Below are positions 4,704 to 62,056 of a stretch of 64,000 nucleotides of DNA, one piece after another. The notes beneath the pieces are model-generated. The model ran no database searches and was not told the origin of the DNA. It was given only the letters and a program-made list of their open reading frames with translations. Positions within the stretch are counted from its first letter, which is position 1. Each line of letters starts with the position of its first letter. This stretch comes from a bacterium (lineage in GTDB: Bacteria; Patescibacteriota; Minisyncoccia; Phycocordibacterales; Phycocordibacteraceae). The stretch covers positions 10,954 through 74,953 of the forward strand of contig JAJYHK010000011.1 of assembly GCA_021784815.1 (NCBI GenBank), read 5' to 3'. The translations under genes and the position numbers were made by a program.

Positions 4704-6136
4704 AGCGCAAGGAGCGCGTAGGCGGCAAGGGTAAGCCAAAACGGAAAAGCCGGAAGAGAAAGCGCCGCGAGCTTTAGGCTTGCGGCGCTTTCCGCTATGC
4801 GAATAAGCCCATCGGTCAAAAGGTACGCCGGCAAGCCGGCAAGTATGGCAAGGAGGGGTGCGATTGAGCCGAAAAGCATTCCGGAAAAACCAGCGAGCGC
4901 GGAAAAGGCCATAGTCACCGGCACGAACGGCATGACGAGAAGGTTTACCGGAATGGCGACCAGCGAAAGATTGCCGGTGTCGTAGAGCAGAAGCGGAAGT
5001 ACGGCGATCTGCGCGGCGATGGTGGTGGCAATCGCGTTAGCCCAGAAGAACCCTATTCGCTTGCAAATAAATGTCTCGATATCCGGCGCGAGCCAAATGA
5101 GTCCGGCGGTCGCGGCGACTGAAAGACCGAAGCCCGGGTCGAATACCGCAAGAAGCGGATTCCAGAGCAGCATAAGCACGATTGCGAGCAAGAGCGCGCG
5201 ATTTGCCGCGTAGCTCTTCCCGGTTGCTCGCGCATAGAGCGCGATGCATGCCATGATGCCGGCGCGCACGGCGGTGGCGCTCGCGCCGGCGACGCCGATG
5301 AAGGCAATGAGCGCAAGCGCGCCAGCGAGCGCGCGGATGTGAAGCGACGCCTTTATATACGCGAGCGCCACCATGACCCACTCAGCGACGACCATGACGT
5401 TGTAGCCGGAGAGTACGATGATCTGCACGAGGCCGGTCCGGACGAATGCGTTTTGCAAATCACTGCCGAGGCCCGACTTGCCTCCGATGACGATGCCGCC
5501 GGCGAGCGAGGCATACGGCTCCGGAAGCGCTACATCGAGTCCGGAAAGGAATACATGTTTGACGCGCGCGAGAAGTGCAGAGACTGAATACCATGGCGCC
5601 GATGCGAGTGCGCGCACCGATGCGTAGTCGAGCACGAAGCGAATGCCCTCGCGCTCCAAATATTTGTCGTAGCGAAAGACGCGTCCGCCCGCGCTTGCAA
5701 ACGGCTGCGGCAATTCAAGCGTGCCGCGGATCGCGACGCGCTCTCCTACGGCAAGCGCCGTGTCGCGCGGCGTAACGGCAAGGACGAGAGAGTGCGCGCT
5801 CCCATACGCGACGCGCACGGGCACCCGCTGCAATCCATCGCGCACGTCCGGATCGCCGGTTATGACTCCGGTCAAGCGTGCGCGCGTGTGAAGCAGCGGT
5901 ACAAAGGCGCGAGGAAGCGGCGTGTCTATGAGCGCGGCGCGGCCCATGCCTATGAACACGCAGAAAAAGAAAATGGCCGCGAGGGCGTGCGCGCGTCGCG
6001 GCACGAAAAAGAAACCGAGAGCAAAAATGAGCGTGAGCAAAAACATAAACGCATACGCGCTCCATCCGAAAACGAAAAGCGAGCGAAGCACAACCCCGCC
6101 CGCGATTCCGATCGCAACGACGAGCAGGCCGCTCAT
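4610..6136 (-). CDS. comEC: ComEC/Rec2 DNA-uptake channel protein (DUF4131 plus competence domain; no attached MBL domain)
   Basis: About 10 TM helices and the FVRTGLVQIIVLSGYNVMVV competence-domain signature. The ORF extends to 6217; start chosen at MSGLLVVAIG (ATG 6136). The last ~30 codons overlap sod antisense. Confidence 0.7.
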   Translation of the reverse strand: MSGLLVVAIGIAGGVVLRSLFVFGWSAYAFMFLLTLIFALGFFFVPRRAHALAAIFFFCVFIGMGRAALIDTPLPRAFVPLLHTRARLTGVITGDPDVRDGLQRVPVRVAYGSAHSLVLAVTPRDTALAVGERVAIRGTLELPQPFASAGGRVFRYDKYLEREGIRFVLDYASVRALASAPWYSVSALLARVKHVFLSGLDVALPEPYASLAGGIVIGGKSGLGSDLQNAFVRTGLVQIIVLSGYNVMVVAEWVMVALAYIKASLHIRALAGALALIAFIGVAGASATAVRAGIMACIALYARATGKSYAANRALLLAIVLMLLWNPLLAVFDPGFGLSVAATAGLIWLAPDIETFICKRIGFFWANAIATTIAAQIAVLPLLLYDTGNLSLVAIPVNLLVMPFVPVTMAFSALAGFSGMLFGSIAPLLAILAGLPAYLLTDGLIRIAESAASLKLAALSLPAFPFWLTLAAYALLALYISAANRSSATPQLRLAKNASTYEPLPKAP

Positions 6137-10911: not shown

Positions 10912-12327
10912 CTACTCTTGTCGCCAGTCGACGAACTGCCACTGTGTCGAGGTGACGGGCGTAAAGGGGGGCGGATTCGTTGAATTTTGACGATCGAAGG
11001 CGGAGGTGCCATTCGAGTAGCCGGACCATCCGGAACAGCCGCCGCCGCCGCCGTACCACCAGTAGGTAATCGGCCGCATAGAAGAGACGATCGTACCGAG
11101 TATGTCGAGGGTCGACTTGCTGCCGTACGCGCTGCATGGGTACATGTTCATCCCGAACGCGCCCGATTGGGCGACAAATATGCCATCGAGGGTGAGGTCG
11201 GCGGGCGCCGTGGGATTAATGAGGACGCTGTGTGATGCGATTGCTGTGAGGCCTGAGGTGCCATCAAAGGCCGTGTAAGTGAGGTTGTTGGTGAGCTGAA
11301 TGTTCGGGTAGACGCCCGGTGTCGTCACGTTTGCGGCGACGACCGTCACTTTCCCCGAGATGGACCCCTCCATCCATACATTATCTTCGACAAAAATGAG
11401 GCCGCAGTTCGCCGGGATGGTGTAGGTGCCGAGCAGGGTTTCTGCGGTAATGAGCCCGTAGTCCTGCTTGTTATAGCCGTAAACCCCGTCAACGGGATAC
11501 GAGCGGATGCTCTTGCTCACGTCGGTCACCTTGTAGACGGTGACCGTGCCGTCGCCATTAAAGACGAGATGGTAGCCGAGATAGTACTGCTTCGAAGTCG
11601 AAATGCGCGGGAAGTAGAGTCCTTCGCTCTGGGCGACCGACTTAAGTGAGGAGAAGTTCGAGGCAATCGCGGCAAAATCGGTCTGCGGGGTCGGGTAGCT
11701 CCAGAGGTCTTGATTGGTACCGCTGCCGAAGACGCCCGGCTCGGTCTGGTTCCCTTGGCAGCCGTAGCTCGGATCGCAGGTCCATGTCGTAACCGAAGAG
11801 GTGACCGGCGCGTTTGGGTTGCCGTCCATGCGAATGCCACCGTTGCTGTGGACGGGCCCGTAAATAGGACCGCCCCCGAACCAGACGCTTGAATTGAGTA
11901 TCATGTTGTAGCGCGCGACCGAGGGCTGGGCGTAGCGCGCCCAGAGCGTCGCCGATACATTGGGAGCGTCGGCGGGGACGCCCTTGCTCGTCACGTCGAT
12001 TGACTGCACGGCATTGCATGCTTCGTTGCCGACGACCGAGAGCGTGTACGTGCCCGCGTTCTGCCCTTCTCCGTTCACATAGGGAACGATAAAGGGGCCG
12101 TTGTGGCCAGTGTGATCCTGGGTATCGCCCGGGTAGTGCGAGAGAAGCCAGCGGTAGTACTCGAGCCCGGCTTCCGCGATGTTAAACGCCTCGGATTGCG
12201 CGCGGACGAACTCCTGCGCGCGATTTTGCTCGAGCACGAATCCGGAGAGGCCGACAATCACCGCAAAAAAGACGGCGCCAAAAACGAGAACAAGCAGCAT
12301 GACAGAGCCTCCGCGATAGCGTTTCAT
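10912..12327 (-). CDS. PilX-N-like large pilus-associated protein (TM anchor plus Gly/Thr-rich secreted domain)
   Basis: N-terminus RGGSVMLLVLVFGAVFFAVIVGLSG resembles the PilX N-terminal domain. Last gene of the minus-strand pilus operon. Confidence 0.45.
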   Translation of the reverse strand: MKRYRGGSVMLLVLVFGAVFFAVIVGLSGFVLEQNRAQEFVRAQSEAFNIAEAGLEYYRWLLSHYPGDTQDHTGHNGPFIVPYVNGEGQNAGTYTLSVVGNEACNAVQSIDVTSKGVPADAPNVSATLWARYAQPSVARYNMILNSSVWFGGGPIYGPVHSNGGIRMDGNPNAPVTSSVTTWTCDPSYGCQGNQTEPGVFGSGTNQDLWSYPTPQTDFAAIASNFSSLKSVAQSEGLYFPRISTSKQYYLGYHLVFNGDGTVTVYKVTDVSKSIRSYPVDGVYGYNKQDYGLITAETLLGTYTIPANCGLIFVEDNVWMEGSISGKVTVVAANVTTPGVYPNIQLTNNLTYTAFDGTSGLTAIASHSVLINPTAPADLTLDGIFVAQSGAFGMNMYPCSAYGSKSTLDILGTIVSSMRPITYWWYGGGGGCSGWSGYSNGTSAFDRQNSTNPPPFTPVTSTQWQFVDWRQE

Positions 12328-35424: not shown

Positions 35425-35458
35425 TGTAAAGGACATTGCTGTGGATAAATGTCCTTTA
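35425..35458. terminator. hairpin aaaggacat-(N14)-atgtccttt just downstream of the xth stop
   Basis: 9-bp perfect stem. No clear U-run. Confidence 0.35.
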
Positions 35459-48355: not shown

Positions 48356-49417
48356 ATGGGGGTGATTGCACGAAATTGGCGCGTGCTTTTTGCATCGGCC
48401 TGCGCCGTCGCGCTTGTGGGCGGGTCTTACTGGTTGTCTCACAGCGTCGGGACGCCGCCGCAGGCGCATGCGTCCGAGGAGACAGCACTCTTGCGGCAGA
48501 TCGCCACGAAAGATTCAAATGGCGACGGGGTACCCGATTGGGAGAAGCAGCTCTACGGGATTCCGCTTAACGCGACAACGACCGACTACTTCCACCTCGG
48601 CATGACGGATGCGCAGGCGATTGCTAAAGGACTCATTGTACCGAAGGCGATCGCGAACCTGCCCGCGGCGACCTCAACCGGCTCCGCGTCGCACCCGCTC
48701 CTCGACTCCGCGCCTGCGCCTGCGCCCGGCACGCTCACCGATGCGTTCGCCAAGACGTTCTTTACGCTCTATCTCGCGGCGAAGCAGCAGAATGGCGGTG
48801 CGAACCTCACCCAGGCGCAAACACAAGCAGTCGCGCAGCAGGCCATGACCCAGTTTGCGTCCACCATTTCCACCGCTCCGGATTTCATTACTGCCTCCGA
48901 TCTCAAACACGCGACGAGTACTGGGCCTGACGCGCTGCGCGCCTACGCGGAAGCGGCGGGTGCCGTGTTTGCCGAGAACACCAGCTATGCCTCGACAAGC
49001 GAAATCGCCTACCTCAAGCAGGCGCTGCAAAATCCGGGGAATGATGCGGTCCCGCTTGCGTACATCGCCTCAATCGCGAAACTGTACCGCCAGGCCGCTG
49101 TCGGGCTTGCGGCGCTGTCGGTGCCGAGTTCGCTCGCGTCGCCCGATCTCTCGATTATTAATGCGCTTGCGCGGCTGAGCGGGATCTTGAATGACTTCAC
49201 GAAGATCGACAGCGATCCAATGGCGGCCATGCTGGCCATCCAACAGTACCCCACAGCCATACAGCAACTGGGTAATGGGCTCATTGGGATGAACCAGGTG
49301 TACGTAACCTCCGCAATTACATTCCCCTCGAATACTCCTGGGGCGCAGTTCGTGAACATCATCCCCGATATTGCGGCGAGCCAAGCGTCCGCGCCGCATT
49401 CCGCCCAAACGCCATGA
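48356..49417 (+). CDS. hypothetical secreted/membrane-anchored protein
   Basis: N-terminal TM/signal, Ala-rich. First gene of a four-gene plus-strand operon. Confidence 0.45.
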   Translation: MGVIARNWRVLFASACAVALVGGSYWLSHSVGTPPQAHASEETALLRQIATKDSNGDGVPDWEKQLYGIPLNATTTDYFHLGMTDAQAIAKGLIVPKAIANLPAATSTGSASHPLLDSAPAPAPGTLTDAFAKTFFTLYLAAKQQNGGANLTQAQTQAVAQQAMTQFASTISTAPDFITASDLKHATSTGPDALRAYAEAAGAVFAENTSYASTSEIAYLKQALQNPGNDAVPLAYIASIAKLYRQAAVGLAALSVPSSLASPDLSIINALARLSGILNDFTKIDSDPMAAMLAIQQYPTAIQQLGNGLIGMNQVYVTSAITFPSNTPGAQFVNIIPDIAASQASAPHSAQTP

Positions 49418-51087: not shown

Positions 51088-53550
51088 ATGAAGCGCTTCC
51101 TCGTGATCCTCGGCATCGGCCTCTCACTCTCGGTAGCGGGGGCTGTGCTCACCTCTCACCCGCGACAGGCCCTCGCAGCAAATCCGGGAAGTAGCTCTGA
51201 CCCCGCCCCCTCGTCATCTTCACAACCGACCAATACTCAGGCTGCTGCCCAGGCTGCGGCGGCACAGAAAGCAACGCCGTCGGGGTTGGCACAGGCCCAT
51301 GCATGCAGTGTGACCGACATAAGCTGTGACTTCGGCTGGATCATGACCGAAATCGCGAGCCTCTTCGCTTGGTTTCTCGGCGTCGCGATGCTCGTACTCG
51401 ACACGGCGGTGTATTACACGGTCGTGAAGATGGGGGACATTTTAGGACAGGCGAACGGCATTACGGCGATACCGCTCATTTGGCGCATTATGCGCGACCT
51501 CGGCAACGTGGCGCTCCTCTTTGGGTTCATTGCGATCGGGCTTGAGACCGTGCTCGGGATCGATTTTTATGGCGGCGGCACGAAGCTCCTGCCTACGCTC
51601 ATCATTGTGGCGGTTCTCCTGAACTTTTCGCTTTTTTTTGCGAGCGCAATCGTCGACGCGAGTAATCTCTTTGCGACCGAATTCTATACGCAGATCAATG
51701 ACGGAAACATTCCGGCGCCCCCGCAATGGAATAACTTTTCAGCAGCCGTGGGGGAGGAGGGCGTCTCAAATGCGATTATGAGTCAGCTTGGTCTGCAAAC
51801 GCTCTACACGGGCGCCCTCGACTACGGCACGACGGCAAGCTCGAAAGTCATGACTCTCTTTACAGGGGCGGACATGATGTACATCGGCTTCCTAAGCATT
51901 TTTCTCTTCATCGTCGCCTCGTTTGTCATGCTCGCGCTTGCGTTTACGCTCGTGGCGCGGTTCGTCGTTCTCATTGTTTTGCTCGTCGTCTCGCCCATCG
52001 GTGTGGCTGCATATGCAGTTCCGCAACTTAAGGCGCGAGGGAAGCAATGGTGGGACATGCTCATCGCGCAATCCATAACCGCCCCGGTACTCCTTCTACT
52101 TCTTTATGTGGCGCTCCGGGTGATCACGGACGCGCATTTTATTACGAGCTTCATGTCCCCAGGGAGCGGGGGTGTAGCAGCGCAGACCGCAACAACCGTC
52201 TGGACGGGTGCGATTAATGGTGGGAATCTCGAGGGATTTGGCGGTATGTTGCTCTCCTTTATCGTCGCCATGGGCCTACTCTTTGCGGTCGTCCAGGCCT
52301 CTAAGTCTATGTCGGCCTGGGGCGCAGGCGCAGCGACGAAACTCGCTGGTATGGCCTCCTTCGGTGCCATCTCGCTCGGTATGCGCAGCACGGTCGGGTA
52401 TGCCGGCACGCGGCTGAATACTAAGCGCATGCAGGCACGCGCTGCAGGGACTGGATTTGGGGCTGGGGTCGCACGTACTGGCGTGCTGATGGGTAAATAC
52501 CTCGGTACGAGCACCTTCGATATACGTAACGCGCCGGGGTCGAAAATGGTTCAAAAGGAGTTCGGCATCGATGCGGGCAAGGGCGCCACGCTTACCGCGC
52601 AAAAGGTAGTGGACAACAAGGTGGGCAAGCCTTGGAATGTGGTCACAGGCTGGAAGCCAATGCAGGAAGCCAGCAAGAAGAGAATGGAGGAATACCGTTC
52701 TGCCAAACGTGACATCGACTTTGCCGACGCACAGTCAGCCATTGAGCAGGCGAAAGAAAAGCTGAAAGCAGGTGTTATTTCGCAAGCGGAATTCGACCGA
52801 GAGACCGTGACGCCAACGAAGATCATTACAGAGGGGCTCGCAAAAATGAGCACAAAACAGCTTGAAGAACTTGGAAGTATTAAGAAGGGGGTCTCTTCTC
52901 TTGTGGAGAACTTGTCTCCGCAAAAATTCGATGCGCTCATGAAGAGCGACAAGCTGACAGAGGAAGAACGCGAGAAGCTCCGCAGCGTCCGATTCGCTAA
53001 AGTTAACGAACTGGTCGAAAAAGCAAATAGGACTGGCGATCGAGCAGATGTCGCAGCTGCACAGAAAGAGATTACGAAACTGAATCAGAAGGAGATTGTT
53101 CACGCACCAAACGAGTTTCTTACGACTCAGATGGTTGCACAGGGTCTTACGAACGATCAGTATGATGCCGTTGCCAAGGATGGTGGGCTCCCTTCTCTTG
53201 AGAGAGCAAAAATCGATGAATATCGAAAGAATCGCTATGACGCGGCTGCTGCGGGTAGCACTGCGAAGTCGGTTGCCGAATCCATTCGGGCGCTCAATTG
53301 GAATCGTGATGCGATCACAAAGCTACCAGCTGGTACCCTTACAAATCACGCTGTTCTTGATGAGCTCGGCCCTGACGCTCTGAATCTCATTGATGTTGCG
53401 CGTCGAGGGAATCTTTCTCCTGTGGACCGCCAGAAACTGGGCGAGTACCTTGAAGATGTCGCTAAAAACGCAGCCGATGCCCGCCAGGCAGTCTTTGCGG
53501 CATACGTTAACACCGATACACGGGTTAAGCGCGATTTGCTCATATCATAG
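51088..53550 (+). CDS. large polytopic membrane protein, VirB6/TrbL-like (inference), with charged coiled-coil C-terminal tail
   Basis: Signal peptide, Ser/Ala-rich linker, six or more TM helices, about 330-aa hydrophilic C-terminus. Confidence 0.4.
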   Translation: MKRFLVILGIGLSLSVAGAVLTSHPRQALAANPGSSSDPAPSSSSQPTNTQAAAQAAAAQKATPSGLAQAHACSVTDISCDFGWIMTEIASLFAWFLGVAMLVLDTAVYYTVVKMGDILGQANGITAIPLIWRIMRDLGNVALLFGFIAIGLETVLGIDFYGGGTKLLPTLIIVAVLLNFSLFFASAIVDASNLFATEFYTQINDGNIPAPPQWNNFSAAVGEEGVSNAIMSQLGLQTLYTGALDYGTTASSKVMTLFTGADMMYIGFLSIFLFIVASFVMLALAFTLVARFVVLIVLLVVSPIGVAAYAVPQLKARGKQWWDMLIAQSITAPVLLLLLYVALRVITDAHFITSFMSPGSGGVAAQTATTVWTGAINGGNLEGFGGMLLSFIVAMGLLFAVVQASKSMSAWGAGAATKLAGMASFGAISLGMRSTVGYAGTRLNTKRMQARAAGTGFGAGVARTGVLMGKYLGTSTFDIRNAPGSKMVQKEFGIDAGKGATLTAQKVVDNKVGKPWNVVTGWKPMQEASKKRMEEYRSAKRDIDFADAQSAIEQAKEKLKAGVISQAEFDRETVTPTKIITEGLAKMSTKQLEELGSIKKGVSSLVENLSPQKFDALMKSDKLTEEEREKLRSVRFAKVNELVEKANRTGDRADVAAAQKEITKLNQKEIVHAPNEFLTTQMVAQGLTNDQYDAVAKDGGLPSLERAKIDEYRKNRYDAAAAGSTAKSVAESIRALNWNRDAITKLPAGTLTNHAVLDELGPDALNLIDVARRGNLSPVDRQKLGEYLEDVAKNAADARQAVFAAYVNTDTRVKRDLLIS

Positions 53551-53568
53551 ATAATAAAAACTATTCCT

Positions 53569-54597
53569 ATGCGCCAGTATTCTGACCAAGAGGTCGAGAG
53601 TCTTGTACAGCAGTTGCCCCAACCGATTCAAGATAGTTTGACAGGACCAGATATGGCAATGAAAGTTGCTAATATCGGTTCTCGAGCAGGTCTCCACATC
53701 GACCAAATTGGCCTTCTGGCGCAGCTTAATCGCAACCTGCTGCTCGGTTTGGTACGGCCGCCTGAATTCTTGCAAGGACTACTCGAGACTGGTATTTCGC
53801 GGGAGAATGCAAATAAGGTCATTGCAGAAATAAACGAGAAGATATTTACACCGCTTCATGATGAGGTCATGGGGGCGACAAAGCGCGAACGTGAGCCAAA
53901 TACCGTTGCGCCAGCGGTTGCGGTGCCGCACTACGAAGCGACGCCCTTGCCGCCCCGGGGAATGCAGGATCAAGCGGCGCCTGCGATGCCCTTTGCGGCG
54001 CCCCAACCCGCGCCATCGGCGCCCTTGCCGCCACGGAGCGTTATGCCTGGAGCTGCCCCTACGACTCCGGCGTATGTGCCGCAAAAACTCATTCAGCTCG
54101 AGCAGATGCAAGTCCGGCGGCCTCAGGCGGCTTCCGTTCCAGCATCCATAAGCGCCTCCCCACAAACGCCGCAAACGCCGCAAATACCGCCGCCGGAATT
54201 TACTTCCTTATATACCGCCCCACAACCGATTGAGCACGTTCGGCAAGCTGAGCCGCCGGCGCCTCCGCCTAACTTGCCCGGCATCTATGGGTCTGTTCTG
54301 GTTTTTGCGCAGACCCCTCACGCCGACCCAACGCCCGCACCAGCGCCGTATGCGCCGCCTGTGCTTGAGGAGCAGTATCCGGGTGCTGCAGCGGAGCAGT
54401 CTGTTGTCCCGGTACTCCCGTCGTATATGCCGCAGCGCGCGCCAGCCAAAATGAGCGCCGCCACGCAGCGGGCTCCACTCGCGGTAACGCCGAGCGCACC
54501 CGTTCAGTCGGAGGCACTGCCGCTCACCGTGCCGCAGCCCGCGTCACCGTCTCCTTCGAACGACAGCACCGACCCATACCGCGAACCGATCGGGTAG
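53569..54597 (+). CDS. proline-rich hypothetical protein
   Basis: [12 protein letters not shown] and PAPAPY repeats. N-terminal globular domain. Confidence 0.45.
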
Positions 54598-55081: not shown

Positions 55082-55543
55082 ATGCGCCGCCCCCTTAAGC
55101 ACAAACGCGTTTGGCGTCCAGACACCCGCTACCAATCGGAGGCCGTGACCCGATTCATTAACGCGGTTATGTGGGACGGAAAGAAGGATACGGCTCGCAA
55201 GATCGTCTACACGGCGTTCGACAAGATCAAAGAGGAGCACGACCCGCTTGAGACGTTTGAGTCGGCTATCCGCAACGTCTCGCCGCTCATGGAGGTGCGC
55301 TCTCGACGCGTCGGTGGGGCCAACTATCAAGTGCCCCGCGAGGTGCCGCAAAAACGCCGCCTCGCCCTCGCGTATCGGTGGATCATCACGAGCGCTCGTT
55401 CGAAGAAGGGCCGCCCGGTGGCTGAGAAGCTCGCCGAAGAGATTCTCCTCGCAAGCAAGAACGAGGGCGATGCGATCAAAAAGAAAGACGAAATGCATCG
55501 CATGGCCGAAGCCAACAAAGCATTCGCCCACTTCGCCTGGTAG
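55082..55543 (+). CDS. rpsG: 30S ribosomal protein S7
   Basis: [27 protein letters not shown]...NYQVPREV...[11 protein letters not shown]. Confidence 0.9.
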
Positions 55544-55768
55544 GAACCCAGAAGTAAACGGCAAAAAACGCTCGGAATACGGGTGTTTTTTCGCCGTTTG
55601 CGCTGCCCGCGCATGCCGCGATTCATGCAGTATGCTTGACAAAAAAACAAGGGCAGGTTAGTTGTGTAGTTGTTGCTCCGTGAGGGGGCACATGTCCTTT
55701 GTGCTCGCTAACGAAAGTAACTCCAGTCCCGCGGAATCCTCCACGGGATATCACAAGGAAGACACGCA

Positions 55769-56134
55769 ATGAGAAACTTGCTCGGAGCCGCTGCGCTCCT
55801 TGCGATCAGTCTGGCCATCACCCCGCCGCCCGCCGCCGCGGGCACGCTCGGCACGCTCTCCTCGAGCTCGCAGGCGTCCGCCAATGGCGGCACCGGCGGG
55901 TTCATGACGCCGTTCGGCTCCTGGTTCGGGCCCGGCAGCGCCGTGACCGGCGACCAGGCGTACGGAAGCGCCACGCTCCTCATGGGGCGTGGCGGCGTGA
56001 GCACCACGACCACCACGGGTACCCAGGGATACGGGTACTCCGGCCTGACCGGCTTCACCACGTTTGGCGGCATGGGCAATGCCAATGCCAATGCCAATGT
56101 GGTGCGCGGGTTCTTCGGATTCCCGCCCTTCTGA
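55769..56134 (+). CDS. small secreted Gly/Thr-rich protein (high-GC island)
   Basis: Signal peptide MRNLLGAAALLAISLAITPPPAAA, NANANA repeat. About 68-70% GC with strong GC3 bias against a host background of about 58-60%. Confidence 0.5.
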   Translation: MRNLLGAAALLAISLAITPPPAAAGTLGTLSSSSQASANGGTGGFMTPFGSWFGPGSAVTGDQAYGSATLLMGRGGVSTTTTTGTQGYGYSGLTGFTTFGGMGNANANANVVRGFFGFPPF

Positions 56135-56227
56135 TCCGCACCGGACTACGTCGACATGGGAGGCGCATCTTCGGATGCGCCTCCTTGCTCGTGTCGGCTC
56201 CCTCGGCAATACCAGGAAGGAACTCAA

Positions 56228-56914
56228 ATGAAGACGATCGTCCGATTTTTGGGCGGTTTCGTGGCGCTTGCCGCGGTAGCCGCCTTCTCGCCTGCTGTCT
56301 ACGCCGGTTCGCTGCAAGCGAACAGCGCAGCCAGCTCCGGTGCCCAGGCAGGCTCGGTGCTGGAAATGAATGCCGCCCCAGGAGTGAACTATAGCGGCGG
56401 CTACATGCTGGGCAACACCCCGGCCGTGATGCCGGGTTCCATCTACACGATGAATCCGTGCAGCAACGGCGCAGCCGTCGGCGGCGCCGGCCCGGGGATC
56501 GGTCTCACCTTCTCGTTCTCCCACGATTCGGATGAGTGCCAACTCCAGAATTGGGCCACGTTCGCCATGCGCGCGTACGCGATGACGCATGATCCGCGCG
56601 ACGAGCAATGGGCTCGCGGCATCATGTGCGCTGCGAACCCGACCGTCTTCAAGACCGCGCCGACTGGCATGTGCCAACCCGAGGCTGGCTCGAAAGCGGT
56701 CGCGGCTGCGGTACCGGCGAGCCCCGTGCCGCCGCCCGTCAAGACGGTGTCCTATCATGGCTCGGTCGTGGCGCTTGACCCCGATGCCCCCGCGTATTGC
56801 CTTCAGGGCGGCGTGGACCCGCGGATCATCCCGGCGTGCGTCGGCGCGCAAGCCGCGAGCGAAGCGTATAAGCAGCTTCATCGCGATCGCGCTGGGAGCA
56901 ACAACGCGGGCTGA
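56228..56914 (+). CDS. secreted Cys-containing hypothetical protein (high-GC island)
   Basis: RBS AGGAAGG, signal peptide MKTIVRFLGGFVALAAVAAFSPAVYA, 8 Cys. Same compositional signature as the neighbouring gene. Confidence 0.5.
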   Translation: MKTIVRFLGGFVALAAVAAFSPAVYAGSLQANSAASSGAQAGSVLEMNAAPGVNYSGGYMLGNTPAVMPGSIYTMNPCSNGAAVGGAGPGIGLTFSFSHDSDECQLQNWATFAMRAYAMTHDPRDEQWARGIMCAANPTVFKTAPTGMCQPEAGSKAVAAAVPASPVPPPVKTVSYHGSVVALDPDAPAYCLQGGVDPRIIPACVGAQAASEAYKQLHRDRAGSNNAG

Positions 56915-56987
56915 TAATCCGCGACCGTGCCTCCACCCCCCGTTTCTGGCTTTCATGCCGGAGCGGGGGTTTTCTTTTGGGAATGTA

Positions 56988-57194
56988 TTAGATACGGGTA
57001 GTAATACCAATCGTATTCTTCCACGTGAGTCGTATAAGATAAATGCCGAACGCAATCTCGGCGAGTATCACTAGGTTTGCCCCGACCATCTCTCCGCTAT
57101 TCCAGTCAAGTAGATAGTACCAGTCGCTCTGATGGAGATATACAAGAAAACCAACGACAACCACTGCAACGATTGAAAACTTCAAATATTTCAT
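56988..57194 (-). CDS. small two-TM membrane protein (transposon passenger)
   Basis: 68-aa ORF in an AT-rich context. Its stop lies within the left IR. Confidence 0.3.
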   Translation of the reverse strand: MKYLKFSIVAVVVVGFLVYLHQSDWYYLLDWNSGEMVGANLVILAEIAFGIYLIRLTWKNTIGITTRI

Positions 57195-57198
57195 AGAA

Positions 57199-57435
57199 CT
57201 ATTCTACTACCACCTCATATTCCTCTTGCGTGTAGTTCGCGTCGCAGTTCCGGCAATGGTAAATGAACTCTGTGCGGGTGATTTTACCTCCTTTGATATC
57301 GGGACCACCCGAGAACTTATCGAGGGACTTCTCTCCGCAATTCGGACATTTTAATGTTTCGCCCGTCCATTTATCCTTAAGCGGGCCAATAGGTTCTCCT
57401 GTCATTCGCGGATTATACCATTCGGCGTTAGGCAA
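57199..57435 (-). CDS. zinc-ribbon small protein (CPNC...HCRNC) (transposon passenger)
   Basis: 78 aa with two CxxC pairs. 8-nt overlap with the upstream 313-aa ORF. Confidence 0.45.
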   Translation of the reverse strand: MPNAEWYNPRMTGEPIGPLKDKWTGETLKCPNCGEKSLDKFSGGPDIKGGKITRTEFIYHCRNCDANYTQEEYEVVVE

Positions 57436-58369
57436 CTTCTCCCGTCTCTCCCGTTTCGGGAAGGTCGAGCATCCTTTGCACGCCGAACGCTCGGGCGAAG
57501 TTCTCCTCGAACTTGCGCCAGTTCGGAGAAATACGCATCAGCGTTGTAACGGAAGCCACAAGCTTATCGAGGTGCGGTATGCCGATCTCCTTCGTCAGAT
57601 AGCGGTGGTGGTGCTTCTCGTAAGTTCCCTTAGAGGTCGCCGTGCCTTCCGTGCGCTTTACGTTCTGCTTCTTTATCTCGTCAATGACGCCTTCCGGCAA
57701 CTGGTCGTAAATGAGCTTCTTCGTGAGATACCCGGCGAACTTCGGGCGCTTGCGGCGCGACTGGGCGTTATACTCCCAACCTTTCAAGCGGAACATTTCC
57801 TGATAGAACTCGTGCGGAAAGCGCATCGTCCACGGCAGGAGTTCCTTCGCGATGTATTTCGAGAGGATAAGTTGCAGTTCTTCCTTTTCACGAACCTCCT
57901 GATAGCCCGTTGCTTCGTCCACGAGAGCGATGATGCCCACGTGGGCAAGCCCGCGCATGATTATCTCGGCCATACGTGCCGTTTCGAGCGCCTTGCCTTT
58001 GAGTACGTTTGCGTCGCGGGCTTGGAGCCATACGTCGCAGATTTCAGGGAGCATGATGGCTGGAATGCCGTTGGTCCTGCCGCCTTTGCCTATATAGGGG
58101 ATAGGGCTACTTGCGCGAGCCAATAAACCCGCAGAAATAAAGGGTCTTAGCGGCTTTAGCTCCAAGAAACGCGGTAGATTTCGCGAGCCGTCCGTATCTA
58201 CGTCCTTACTGCCGCCTTCCGGCCTTGCCAGTGCCTTATTTACGCTTGCCTGCGTGAGCACTCGCGTTCCGTCCTCTAGCACGTAGCACTGGATTTCTAG
58301 GTCTCCGATATGGATGGGGTGGTCCTCCGATCCGTATGCGATTTTCTGCACCTTCTGCGGTTCGTCCAT
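57428..58369 (-). CDS. hypothetical phage-type protein (possibly P63C-domain-like; assignment uncertain) (transposon passenger)
   Basis: 313 aa with a charged C-terminal half. No catalytic motif recognised. Placed 3 nt downstream of the transposase stop. Confidence 0.45.
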   Translation of the reverse strand: MDEPQKVQKIAYGSEDHPIHIGDLEIQCYVLEDGTRVLTQASVNKALARPEGGSKDVDTDGSRNLPRFLELKPLRPFISAGLLARASSPIPYIGKGGRTNGIPAIMLPEICDVWLQARDANVLKGKALETARMAEIIMRGLAHVGIIALVDEATGYQEVREKEELQLILSKYIAKELLPWTMRFPHEFYQEMFRLKGWEYNAQSRRKRPKFAGYLTKKLIYDQLPEGVIDEIKKQNVKRTEGTATSKGTYEKHHHRYLTKEIGIPHLDKLVASVTTLMRISPNWRKFEENFARAFGVQRMLDLPETGETGEVA

Positions 58370-58371
58370 GG

Positions 58372-59238
58372 TTATGCGGTTATTGCGTTTAATATCAGCG
58401 TCTCGAACGCCGCGCCAGCGTCTCTCCGGTTATACCGGAAGCAGAACTCATTGATGTAGGCGTTCAAGTGCTTGTCGCTGATGTGATGGTATTGCCCGTA
58501 AATGCCTCGCTTCAGGAGCGCCCAAAAACCTTCGATGGTATTCGTGTGCGCATTGGCGTCCACATAGTTACCCTTACTGTGTCGAACGATGGAGTGCTTG
58601 TAGTCCTTTTTGCTCGATATGCCGTAGTAGCCGCCCCATTCGTCCGTCATGATGTGCGAGCCATCCTTCACGTTCTCCTTGATGAGCGTGTGGAGGGTTC
58701 TCATGTCCGTGCCCGAAATCTTCCGCGCCTTCACTTTACCGCCCCGTTGGAGCAAGCCCATGACGGCGGTCTTGCCGACAGCGCCCCTACCGAGGTTAGC
58801 CCGCTTCGACTTGTGCTTGTTCTTCTCCTTTCCGCCGATATATGTCTCATCGGCTTCCACGATGCCTTCGAGGAGATCGCCTTGGTCTCTCATGGCCTTT
58901 CGTATTCTCATGAGCATGAGCCAAGCCGTGTTCTTATTCACTTCGATGTCCCGTGCGAGTTGTCGGGCGCTGATACCTTTCTTGGCGTTCAATACGAGCG
59001 CGATGGCAAGAAACCACTTTTGGAGGTCTACCTTACTCTTATGGAAAATCGTTTGAACCGTCCCGCTAAAGGAAGTGTTGCAGGAGTTGCAGTGATATCT
59101 GCTCTCCTTCGGAGCCGGGGTAACTCTCACCGACGAGCAGTATGGGCACTTCGGCTTACCGTTCCATCGCACCACCTCGATGTGCTCTCTGCAGTCCTCT
59201 TGTGTCGGGAACCTCTTATATAGTTGGATAATATTCAT
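58372..59238 (-). CDS. IS1595 family transposase (N-terminal zinc ribbon plus DDE domain)
   Basis: CPYCSS...CNSC zinc ribbon; TDEWGGY...NTIEGFWALLKRGIYGQYHHISDKHLNAYINEFCFRYNRR signature. Confidence 0.9.
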   Translation of the reverse strand: MNIIQLYKRFPTQEDCREHIEVVRWNGKPKCPYCSSVRVTPAPKESRYHCNSCNTSFSGTVQTIFHKSKVDLQKWFLAIALVLNAKKGISARQLARDIEVNKNTAWLMLMRIRKAMRDQGDLLEGIVEADETYIGGKEKNKHKSKRANLGRGAVGKTAVMGLLQRGGKVKARKISGTDMRTLHTLIKENVKDGSHIMTDEWGGYYGISSKKDYKHSIVRHSKGNYVDANAHTNTIEGFWALLKRGIYGQYHHISDKHLNAYINEFCFRYNRRDAGAAFETLILNAITA

Positions 59239-59391
59239 GGTGTTTTACGTCTCTACCTTTATGTAAGGCAGTATAGCACCCCGAAAAAGGTCAACCCCCT
59301 GCTCGCGCCGGGGGCTGTGGATAACCTCTACCTATAACTAATACATTCCCTTTCTTTTGTGTGGCGGAGCGGCAGTTCTCTGACAAATCGT

Positions 59392-59679
59392 CTACGTGTT
59401 CTCCGGCTCGGCGAGCAGGACGCGCCTGCGTTCCTCGTACTCCTCCTTACCGATTTCCCCCTTGGCGAAACGCTCGTTCAAAATCTCAAGTGCTGAAGAG
59501 GTACCGTCGAGGTAGCGGTGCCAGTGGCAGCGGCCGTGCCGCCGGCCGAAGACGAGGCGGAGCAGCCATACGAGTGCCACGACGAGCACGATCGCCCAAA
59601 AGACGTTCCAGAGGACTTCCAATATGCCAAAACCGCCGCCCCAGCCCATGCCCGATCCGTACCCGTAGTGATACATCAT
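59392..59679 (-). CDS. SHOCT-domain membrane protein
   Basis: TM helix plus C-terminal LEILNERFAKGEIGKEEYEERRRVL SHOCT motif. Confidence 0.6.
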   Translation of the reverse strand: MMYHYGYGSGMGWGGGFGILEVLWNVFWAIVLVVALVWLLRLVFGRRHGRCHWHRYLDGTSSALEILNERFAKGEIGKEEYEERRRVLLAEPENT

Positions 59680-59878
59680 ATTACGATTTACGATATACCC
59701 CCATTATAACTCTCGACCGCGGCGCTTTGTTTCCCGTGAACGCCGATGGAGAATTAAGGACGAAGGTCTTTTCTTTTGTCCTATTTTCTTGTATCGTGAG
59801 ACCAACGCTCCGGCGGGCTTTATTTTTATTTTAACCAGTAAAGAAGGAGGTAACACCGACCCTTAGTAACCACCAGTC

Positions 59879-62056
59879 ATGAAGCGAGACTATCCTCTAG
59901 AAAAAGTGCGTAACTTCGGCATCATTGCCCACATTGATGCGGGTAAGACAACCACGTCCGAGCGCATCCTCTACTACACGGGCATGAGCCATAAAATCGG
60001 CGAGGTGCACGAGGGCGCGACGGTCACCGACTGGATGGAACAGGAGCGCGAGCGCGGCATCACGATCACCGCGGCCGCCATCACCTGCTTCTGGACGCCG
60101 ACCCAAGCGCGCATGGAGGGCGGATCGGTGCAAGCCTCAATGGCACATGACGCTCAGAAACACCGCTTCAACATCATCGACACGCCGGGGCACATCGACT
60201 TCACCGCCGAGGTGCAGCGCTCCATGCGCGTCCTCGACGGCGCCATCACGGTCTTCGACGGCGTATCAGGCGTCGAGCCGCAGTCGGAGACGAACTGGCG
60301 CTATGCCGACGATGCCAATGTGCCGCGCCTGTGCTTCATCAATAAGCTCGACCGCACCGGCGCTTCCTTCGAGGACTCCTATAAGAGCATTCTCGAACGT
60401 CTCTCGCCGAAGGCGGTGCGCATGCAGATCCCGATCGGCGAGGAGAGCGCGCACGAGGGCGTTGTTGATCTGCTCACCATGAAGGCGTACCGCTTCGAAG
60501 GCGCCATGGGCGACCAGGTGATTGAGGGCGAGGTGCCTGCGGATCTCGTCGACACCGCGAAGAAGTACCGCGGCGAGCTCATCGAGCGCATCGTCGAGAA
60601 TGACGAGGCGGCGATGAACGCATACCTCGAGGGCAACGAGCCCCCTCTCGAGGAACTCAAAAAGCTTTTGCGCAAAGCGGTGATCGCCAACGAAGTCTTC
60701 CCGGTGTATTGCGGCAGCGCGCTCAAGAACAAGGGCGTGCAGCTCATACTCGACGCCGTGGTCGACTACCTCCCGAGCCCGCTCGATGTGCCGCCGGTGA
60801 CCGGAATCAATCCGAAGACGGGCGAGGAAATCATGCGCCGCGCGTCCGATGACGAACCGTTCTGCGCGCTCGCCTTCAAGCTCCAGACCGATCCGTTCGT
60901 CGGCTCGCTCACGTTCTTCCGCGTGTACTCGGGCAGCATCGCGGCCGGGTCCTACGTGTACAACTCGACCACGGGCAACAAAGAGCGCATTGGCCGCATC
61001 GTGCGGCTCCAGGCTGACAAGCGCGAAGAAGTCGAGCAGGTTTTCGCAGGTGAAATCGCCGCCGCCGTGGGCCTTAAGGACACCAAGACCTCGCACACGC
61101 TCTGCGACGAGGCGAACCCGATCGTGCTCGAGGAAATCCACTTCCCGGAACCGGTCGTGTCGGTCCGCATCGAGCCGAAGACCAAGGCCGACCAGGAGAA
61201 GATGGGCATTGCGCTCAGGAAGCTTGCGGATGAAGACCCGACCTTCCGGGTGTCCTCCGACGAAGAAACGGGCGAAACAATCATCTCGGGCATGGGCGAG
61301 CTTCATCTTGAGATTCTCGTCGACCGCATGAAGCGCGAGTTTAACGTCGTTGCCGATACGGGTGCGCCGCAGGTGGCGTACCGCGAAACGATCCTCGGCA
61401 ATGCCGACGTCGAAGGCAAGTACATCAAGCAGACCGGCGGCCGCGGCCAGTACGGGCACGTCAAGCTCAAGATCAAGAAGCTCGAGCCGTTGCCGGAAGG
61501 CGAGGACGTCAAGATTGCGAAAAACGTGACGCGCGAGGACCACTTCGAGTTCATTAACAACATAAAAGGAGGCGTCATTCCGCAGGAGTACATCCCGGCG
61601 GTGGAGAAAGGCATCCGCGAGGCGATGGCGCGCGGCGTGCTCGCCGGCTTCCCGATGGTCGATATCTCAGTCGATTTGTACGACGGCTCGTATCACGACG
61701 TGGACTCCTCCGAAGTCGCCTACAAGATCGCAGCCTCGATGGCCTTCCAGGATGGCGTCCAGAAATCGAAACCGGTCTTGCTTGAGCCGATCATGAAGGT
61801 GGAGGTGACCGTGCCGGAGCAGTTCATGGGCGACATTACCGGCAACCTCTCCGGGAAGCGCGGCGCGATCGAGGGCATGGATGATCGCGGCATGAGCAAG
61901 GTCATCCGCGCCAAGGTGCCGCTCAAGGAAATGTTCGGCTACACAACGACCCTGCGAAGCATGACCGAAGGCCGCGGCGCCATGATGATGGAGTTCGACC
62001 ACTATGATGTCGTGCCGACGAACGTGGCGCAGGACATTATCACTGCGCGCAAGTAG
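59879..62056 (+). CDS. fusA: translation elongation factor G
   Basis: [21 protein letters not shown] and full EF-G domains II-V; 725 aa. Confidence 0.95.

Follow-up and report, generated by a model that had tools for sequence, protein, structure and literature searches.

The 64,000-nucleotide stretch of DNA analyzed here (the window; positions 10,954 to 74,953, forward strand, of contig JAJYHK010000011.1, assembly GCA_021784815.1, from a bacterium of the Patescibacteriota family Phycocordibacteraceae) harbors a mobile element with an IS1595-type insertion sequence (IS) transposase and several further genes. Our preferred interpretation, in which we have moderate confidence, is that this element is a complete, single-copy, 2,372-bp transporter IS (tIS) of the IS1595 family, made up of a transposase-P63C core plus lineage-specific cargo, with the P63C protein perhaps being a noncatalytic accessory module. 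Coordinates below are those of the window unless a locus is named, other loci being designated by L numbers.

The element is bounded by two 23-nt terminal inverted repeats (IRs), identified by repeat search, one far from the transposase gene (56979 to 57001; GGGAATGTATTAGATACGGGTAG, a 23-mer that is also an IR of element L092) and the other near it (59328 to 59350; reverse complement GGGAATGTATTAGTTATAGGTAG). The IRs are complementary at 20 of 23 positions (87%), one more than an initial annotation of the sequence had estimated, and their outermost 13 nt, GGGAATGTATTAG, are identical between both ends and occur at exactly two sites in the window, in inverted orientation. Perfect 8-bp direct repeats, tttctttt, are present immediately outside the IRs, at 56971 to 56978 on the left and 59351 to 59358 on the right, as that annotation had described. 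Many transposase-P63C loci are likewise flanked by homologous IRs, (C/G)GGAAT.T..TAG....GGT, and by individual 8-bp duplications (e.g., L005, L043, L044, L046, L051, L075, L086, and L102); since such ends, each with its own duplication, recur in at least 10 other loci, the pattern in the window is not due to chance. The G+C content of the element (0.45 to 0.56) is lower than that of its flanks (0.62 to 0.67), and the IRs enclose four closely packed open reading frames (ORFs), all on the minus strand. No further copy of the element was found in the window, where the only additional match to the 13-mer, at 49314 with two mismatches, is at chance level.

The gene adjacent to the proximal IR (58372 to 59238, minus strand) encodes a 288-amino-acid (aa) DDE (Asp-Asp-Glu) transposase of the IS1595 family (PF12762, 8.2e-43, 146.5 bits against a cutoff of 27 bits; NF033547, 3.8e-65). 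Its N terminus contains a Zn ribbon (PF12760, 3.5e-8, 33.7 bits against a cutoff of 25.4), apparent in the sequence as CPYC...CNSC, and a helix-turn-helix (HTH), followed by the catalytic residues D130, D199, and E236, all three invariant across 14 relatives, and downstream by K243/R244. The IS1 model NF033558 is also matched (3.6e-6), as is an N-terminal Zn-binding domain model shared by IS1 and IS1595. Judged by these features, the transposase looks functional. Comparison with homologues gave proportions of nonsynonymous change (pN) of 0.13 to 0.15 against synonymous proportions (pS) above 0.7, i.e., saturated, for the transposase, P63C, and Zn-ribbon genes, indicating that the three are real genes under purifying selection. 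This includes two of the three presumed passengers, for which the coding signal is clear (P63C versus L084, pN 0.13 and pS 0.75; Zn ribbon, pN 0.13 to 0.15 and pS 0.76). Together, the IRs, the duplication, and the domain matches bear out the initial identification of an intact IS1595-family element with passenger-type genes, that is, a tIS.

The second gene (57428 to 58369, minus strand) encodes a 313-aa protein which had been thought to lack any recognizable catalytic motif. It in fact contains a recognizable P63C domain of unassigned function (PF10546, 1.4e-28, 99.8 bits against a cutoff of 26.1; residues 168 to 267) and matches phrog_2384 over nearly its full length (4.7e-94; residues 7 to 298). 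The protein consists of a beta-rich N-terminal domain, with weak Bro-N-like similarity, and the helical P63C domain; its invariant motif is ALVDEATGYQ. When its AlphaFold2 model (predicted local distance difference test score, 78.8) was compared by Foldseek with the viral models in BFVD, the Mx8 p63 protein was retrieved, followed by a tail of weak matches to Bro-N, KilA, and antirepressor proteins. DdrC and DnaD came out on top, weakly, in both PDB fold searches, and a PDB profile search gave a marginal match to the winged-helix DNA-binding domain of IBP39 (E value, 0.19). Homologues are numerous (>6,600 matches). Those from phages are 40 to 43% identical across approximately 90% of the length and are located in lysogeny or nin regions, for example between the repressor and integrase genes in phage Javan515, beside the integrase gene in Gordonia phage Petra and Burkholderia phage DC1, and in the nin region of phage 933W (L082), where the P63C gene adjoins a methyltransferase and a Lar-like gene. 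Others are found on small plasmids.

To place the P63C gene in context, we surveyed 80 P63C loci from species-representative genomes, a sample skewed towards relatives of the query. At 28 of them, an IS1595 transposase gene, or the sequence for its N-terminal ~110 to 140 residues alone, was found immediately upstream on the same strand. A Pfam scan of 74 upstream neighbors identified Zn_ribbon_IS1595 in 21 and DDE_Tnp_IS1595 in 18, with every other family occurring no more than four times, and the 75 downstream neighbors scanned were heterogeneous. The IS1595 transposase is thus the sole recurrent neighbor of P63C. The two genes are also very closely apposed, the start codon of P63C following the stop codon of the transposase at a median distance of 1 nt (−11 to +3 in 21 of 23 pairs), with frequent ATGA overlaps. 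In the window they are joined as TAA-cc-ATG, a 2-nt spacer, pointing to this pair as the one that is tightly coupled at the translational level. Element L086 (1,944 bp, perfect 23-bp IRs, duplication AAAATAAA) contains the transposase and P63C genes only. Behind P63C, the sister elements carry a variable set of genes, including methyltransferase/restriction-modification genes (L012, L013, L024, and L044), small membrane proteins, and lipoproteins, or no gene at all. The adjacency, the neighbor census, the coupling, and the existence of two-gene elements all argue that this lineage has a conserved core, the transposase plus P63C, and that passenger-like behavior is confined to the genes behind this core. 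The proposal that the element carries three passenger genes consequently holds for the downstream genes, which appear passenger-like, but not for P63C, a conserved, coupled companion of the transposase across phyla with which it forms the minimal elements.

Methyltransferase or restriction genes also adjoin P63C on plasmids pRW2 (L105) and pMPPM01 (L106), besides phage 933W and the four elements listed above. As a general partner of P63C they were rejected, N6_N4_Mtase being present in only 3 of the 75 downstream neighbors. As a separate observation, IS1595 tIS elements can thus carry restriction-modification genes as well.

A further aspect of the association concerns the form of the proteins involved. 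All IS-linked P63C proteins are of a short form, devoid of a basic motif, GGxARAxxLSxExRxEIAxxAAxARW, that 41 of the 49 unlinked P63C proteins have at their N terminus. The motif is missing even from the L087 protein, which is 61% identical to an unlinked protein that has it. In at least seven loci (L003, L015, L020, L041, L054, L074, and L084), the DDE domain of the transposase is cleanly gone while an intact Zn-ribbon-HTH ORF (120 to 135 aa) is retained, directly followed by an intact P63C gene. Where checked, the IRs of these loci are missing, with only a degenerate IR-like remnant in L084. The latter, at 424 to 1758 of an ERZ1292646 contig (ENA), is the closest homologue (79% identity). 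The stand-alone Zn-ribbon-HTH proteins of the seven loci are equivalent to the N-terminal third of an IS1595 transposase, and that of L084 ends right at the first catalytic Asp. Such Zn-ribbon-HTH plus P63C pairs devoid of a DDE domain are recurrent and look domesticated. The short form of the IS-linked proteins, the DDE-less derivatives, and the coupling together suggest that P63C acts with the N-terminal domain of the transposase.

P63C does not, however, appear to be a coevolved catalytic subunit, as deduced from the allele swaps, the interrupted copies, and the phage and plasmid contexts. In the sister elements window, L087, L092, and L102, DNA similarity breaks at the borders of the P63C gene, P63C being exchanged as a cassette. 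The interrupted copies are those of a 2.37-kb sister element present twice (L045 and L048) on one contig, CBDBHH010000005.1, of an alphaproteobacterial metagenome-assembled genome; they differ from each other by one base and have unlike 8-bp duplications. In their case, movement either does not require P63C, or relies on P63C acting as two fragments or supplied in trans.

Combining these lines of evidence, P63C can be read, with modest confidence, as an exchangeable, probably DNA-binding module that operates with the N-terminal domain of the transposase. In the mechanism we envisage, the DDE transposase, with its Zn ribbon, HTH, and D-D-E-K residues, would act on the 23-bp IRs to move the element, duplicating an 8-bp A/T-rich target. 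The transposase-P63C operon would be read from a promoter beside the proximal IR, the two genes being translationally coupled, and the downstream cargo would comprise a 68-aa Zn-ribbon protein expressed from its own, probably leaderless, promoter, and then a small membrane protein. The remaining steps are proposed with low confidence only: P63C may be a noncatalytic, DNA-binding, Bro/Ant-like accessory protein; it may work with, or be tethered by, the Zn-ribbon-HTH domain of the transposase; it may be unnecessary for the chemistry of transposition; and it may represent an exchangeable module for regulation of the element or for conflict with the host or rival elements rather than for DNA cleavage. 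A more far-reaching version, according to which the two genes form the undescribed core of a widespread IS1595 lineage, in which a swappable, DNA-binding P63C acts via the Zn-ribbon-HTH, and the N-terminal domain and P63C become domesticated together after loss of the catalytic domain, is tentative and, taken as a whole, rather unlikely.

The cargo proper begins with the Zn-ribbon gene (57199 to 57405, minus strand), whose product, with the metal-binding signature CPNC...CRNC, had been described as a 78-aa protein overlapping, and translationally coupled to, the 313-aa gene. That description was based on a TTG start at 57435, which was rejected: homologues in five clusters (77 to 79% identical), each encoded directly after a P63C gene, are 66 to 67 aa long and start with MTGEP, and two homologues have in-frame stops upstream of the ATG. 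The start is most likely ATG 57405, giving a protein of 68 aa whose gene begins 22 nt past the P63C stop; the overlap, and with it the coupling to P63C, is therefore not supported. A more distant homologue is encoded in L085 (52% identity). Pfam and NCBIfam returned only subthreshold matches to Zn-ribbon or Lar-like families, and membership of the Lar restriction alleviation family was discarded (TIGR03655, 19.4 bits versus 39.6; PF14354, 15.8 versus 28.6), the resemblance being one of generic Zn-ribbon similarity. The last ORF (56988 to 57194, minus strand; 68 aa) has its stop codon inside the IR and encodes a probable small membrane protein, with two hydrophobic segments at about residues 6 to 20 and 37 to 56 in the hydropathy profile. 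It has no sequence homologue, being the single member of its protein cluster. Nonhomologous small transmembrane ORFs occupy the matching position in L092 (72 aa), L085 (47 aa), and L102 (41 aa), and a soluble 80-aa ORF does so in L087; the small membrane ORF is thus conserved by position only. In PADLOC-DB v2, the transposase, P63C, and membrane ORF had no match and the Zn-ribbon protein had a single one at chance level (E value, 0.018), and neither Zn-ribbon nor membrane ORF matched a toxin-antitoxin family in Pfam, NCBIfam, or PADLOC. With no defense, toxin-antitoxin, or antirestriction family matched at significance by any of the proteins of the element, the idea of a defense or addiction module remains speculation.

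Candidate expression signals were recognized by their conservation, as a generic sigma-70 and terminator scan found nothing above the level of shuffled sequences. A putative extended −10 element of the transposase-P63C operon, TGCTATACT (59270 to 59278, minus strand), is conserved in L084, L086, L087, and L092. Another, TGGTATAAT (57412 to 57420, minus strand), lies 6 nt upstream of the Zn-ribbon ATG at 57405, and a −10-like hexamer, TATAAT or TATACT, is similarly found 6 to 7 nt before the Zn-ribbon ATG in the window, L087 and L092 (both ~4985 to 5000), and L102 (~2795 to 2810). This suggests that the Zn-ribbon cargo may be read as its own leaderless transcript, separate from the transposase-P63C operon. 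Three nucleotides inside the transposase-proximal IR is a perfect DnaA-box consensus, TTATCCACA (59316 to 59324, minus strand), one of two matches in the window (the second at 35440 to 35448) against 0.14 expected. The box is found at the equivalent place in L084, L086, L087, L102, and, by a search for the IR-plus-box pattern, in five metagenome loci, and may provide a link from DnaA to transposition or to expression of the transposase. A G/C-clamped hairpin, CCCCCGGCGCGAGCAGGGGG (59295 to 59314, minus strand), located between this box and the putative promoter of the transposase, is not conserved in the sister elements.

In the chromosome of its host, a member of the Patescibacteria whose elongation factor G relatives are Paceibacteria/Kaiserbacteria-like, the element is present in a single copy within the rpsG-fusA spacer, where two convergent genes face it with their 3′ ends. 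This junction, normally compact (~0.7 kb in the relative L094), extends here over 4.3 kb (55543 to 59879) and contains, besides the IS, genes for predicted secreted Gly/Ala-rich proteins (55769 to 56134 and 56228 to 56914) and a SHOCT-domain membrane protein (59392 to 59679). Downstream of the second Gly/Ala-rich protein gene, an intrinsic-terminator hairpin (56937 to 56969, plus strand; ~13 bp, then UUUUCUUUU) is predicted, with a folding energy of −25.8 kcal/mol for a 61-nt stretch (z = −2.6). Since the left tttctttt is the U-tract that follows this hairpin, the element has inserted into the intrinsic terminator, and the duplication regenerates the U-tract. The duplications of the sister elements are also A/T rich (AAAATAAA, CTAAAAAA, AAAATATT, TAAAAAAA, and others), and L046 and L044 likewise adjoin a hairpin followed by a T-run, suggesting either that terminators are targeted or simply that A/T tracts are preferred where the genome is GC rich. 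A second low-GC stretch is found elsewhere in the window at 52600 to 53800 (~0.49 to 0.51, compared to ≥0.6 around it), inside a long ORF (51088 to 53550).

The recent transposition inferred in the initial annotation is plausible in view of the perfect duplication and of two Logan contigs from run SRR13178631, both 100% identical to the window. One (L095) covers 55462 to 56979 and the other (L001) 56950 to 59380. Position 56979 is the last base common to the filled and the reconstructed empty site and 59351 is the first common base on the other side, and the contig breakpoints are the exact k = 31 branch positions of a filled/empty bubble. As a multicopy IS would break contigs at the IR tips, the observed breaks fit such a bubble, strong but indirect evidence that filled and empty alleles coexist in the sample. 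Among relatives, the spacer has diverged in L093 and the whole region is missing from L094.

Several observations weigh against the interpretation we favor. The exact 27-mer of the empty junction, reconstructed as ...GGAGCGGGGGTTTTCTTTTGTGTGGCGGAG..., was not found in Joint Genome Institute metagenomes. Most of the P63C family has no transposase nearby, being found instead on small plasmids or, in prophages, in the lysogeny or nin regions. While the transposases of the window, L087, L092, and L102 are 77 to 80% identical and their Zn-ribbon genes 77 to 82%, their P63C proteins share only 30 to 46%, and one of these alleles, from L087, is closest to a non-IS protein, the unlinked, motif-bearing (long-form) protein mentioned above. 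The element of L045 and L048 exists in two copies although P63C has two in-frame stops, in its variable loop, in each of them. Finally, the correlation between the distances of the transposases and those of the P63C proteins is no more than moderate (r = 0.49; as high in 10 of 2,000 permutations). Strict coevolution of the two proteins was rejected on account of this moderate value and the allele swaps, which contradict it.

An unlikely alternative is that P63C, alone or along with the genes for the Zn-ribbon and membrane proteins, is conflict cargo, i.e., a prophage-type exclusion, defense, or counterdefense gene which rides in the IS and, lacking transcription and translation signals of its own, borrows those of the transposase. 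Cassette-wise replacement between elements that are otherwise ~78% identical is typical of conflict or specificity genes, P63C sits among lysogen-expressed accessory genes in temperate phages (Javan515, Petra, DC1, and 933W) and next to methyltransferase or restriction genes in L012, L013, L024, L044, pRW2, and pMPPM01, and it stays intact at the DDE-less loci. However, no PADLOC model fits any of the four proteins, P63C has no conserved effector-type domain, and a methyltransferase follows it in just 3 of 75 loci; cargo of this kind would also leave unexplained why the N-terminal domain of the transposase is retained and why the basic motif is constantly absent from IS-linked P63C. The opposite possibility, that P63C is a required or strongly stimulatory cofactor of transposition, architectural or target selecting like IstB of IS21, and the element a two-gene IS and not a tIS, would account for the near-universal translational coupling, the two-gene minimal elements with perfect IRs and duplications, the transposase being the only recurrent neighbor, and the covariation of distances (r = 0.49). 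It is nevertheless quite improbable given that P63C persists after loss of the catalytic domain and the IRs, that its alleles are freely swapped, including with the non-IS pool, that L045 and L048 are in two copies despite the P63C stops (trans complementation being possible), and that most IS1595 elements need one gene (PMC8101967).

The downstream cargo could in turn be an addiction (toxin-antitoxin-like) pair stabilizing the element, with the membrane peptide as the toxin and the Zn-ribbon protein as the regulator or antidote. The order Zn ribbon, then small membrane-anchored ORF, is seen in four elements (window, L092, L085, and L102), with a conserved Zn ribbon, a highly variable membrane partner, and a conserved promoter-like element of their own. 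We consider this very improbable: L087 has its soluble ORF where the membrane ORF would be, the membrane ORFs show no alignable sequence and agree in position only, both genes are absent from many sister elements, and no toxin-antitoxin family was matched in Pfam, NCBIfam, or PADLOC.

In terms of classification, the element has the DDE_Tnp_IS1595 domain with its acidic triad, the N-terminal Zn ribbon, the 8-bp duplication, and the short terminal IRs starting with GGG expected of IS1595. The N-terminal zinc finger or Zn ribbon is missing only from the IS1016 group, and most family members have one gene (PMC8101967). These single-gene elements measure ~0.7 to 1.1 kb; a length of 2,372 bp and four ORFs identify the present one as a passenger-carrying derivative and not a simple IS. 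A tIS is defined by IS-like ends and a known-family transposase with extra genes inside the IRs (TnCentral preprint), and here three further ORFs lie between ends of a known family. As passenger-bearing IS1595 elements are a recognized class (TnCentral preprint; PMC11891212), the element type itself is not new. Compared to known IS1595 tIS, such as ISNha5, it shares the DDE_Tnp_IS1595 domain and Zn ribbon, GG-starting IRs, 8-bp duplications, and extra genes within the IRs, and differs in that the gene next to the transposase is not arbitrary cargo but a conserved one, coupled to it in translation. The passengers of ISNha5 in the open literature are transcription regulators, and no mention of P63C in connection with IS elements was found in that literature, where the term "P63C domain" occurs in three papers, all on other subjects. 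The conserved transposase-P63C core is possibly undescribed, although ISfinder may record it. As to subgroups, we presume, provisionally, that the DDE-K tetrad and GGnnnnTAT-type ends of the window's element are ISNwi1-group-like, and we take the CGGAATTT ends of its sister elements to be ISNha5-group-like. Both the ISNwi1 and the ISNha5 group include passenger-carrying members.

Other systems offer partial parallels. The transposase of IS1 belongs to a related superfamily with a shared N-terminal Zn-binding domain model, and InsA, a separate N-terminal Zn-finger-HTH protein which binds the IRs and represses, has the domain content of the stand-alone N-terminal proteins found upstream of P63C in L015, L041, L054, and L084. 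IS1 differs in having no P63C partner and in that its short protein is made when frameshifting does not occur, the short protein here arising by deletion of the catalytic domain from an IS1595-type transposase. The phage P63C/Bro/Ant-type regulators (Mx8 p63; 933W L0095) share the P63C domain, the full-length phrog_2384 match, and the weak Bro-N/KilA-N resemblance at the N terminus; in contrast to the IS-linked proteins, stand-alone P63C proteins of phages, plasmids, and chromosomes usually have the extra basic N-terminal motif and no transposase, and none has a demonstrated function. A conserved, coexpressed second gene beside the transposase within the IRs is also a feature of IS21 (IstA/IstB), IS66 (TnpA/B/C), and IS200/IS605 (TnpB). 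P63C, however, shares no domain with IstB (AAA+), the IS66 accessory proteins, or TnpB, and the stops in L045 and L048 argue against an essential role. As for the DnaA box, the outside end of IS50/Tn5 carries one, and a link between IS50 and DnaA is known. The element resembles it in having a consensus box just inside the transposon end, here conserved among sister elements, but the IS families are unrelated.

Taken by itself, the element is one more passenger-carrying IS1595 and ordinary as such; what is mainly notable is that, in a small Patescibacteria genome, it is intact and seems to be polymorphic still. A useful and testable lead is provided instead by the comparative picture for P63C. 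Through it, a large mobile-element family of unassigned function is linked to a single genomic partner with strong conservation, namely the IS1595 transposase, or more precisely the DNA-binding domain at its N terminus, and is also seen to bear clear marks of an exchangeable module. The P63C domain has been uncharacterized since 2002, and the pairing opens up cheap, concrete experiments. The pattern also bears on whether the "passenger" genes of tIS elements truly are passengers and on their part in transposition, as P63C is, in almost every relative, translationally coupled to the transposase, yet is interrupted in L045 and L048 and swapped among sister elements. If the two-gene core were confirmed, a partner would be defined for the first time for the P63C family, whose more than 6,000 members occur in phages, on plasmids, and in IS elements, and a system in which the family can be assayed would become available.

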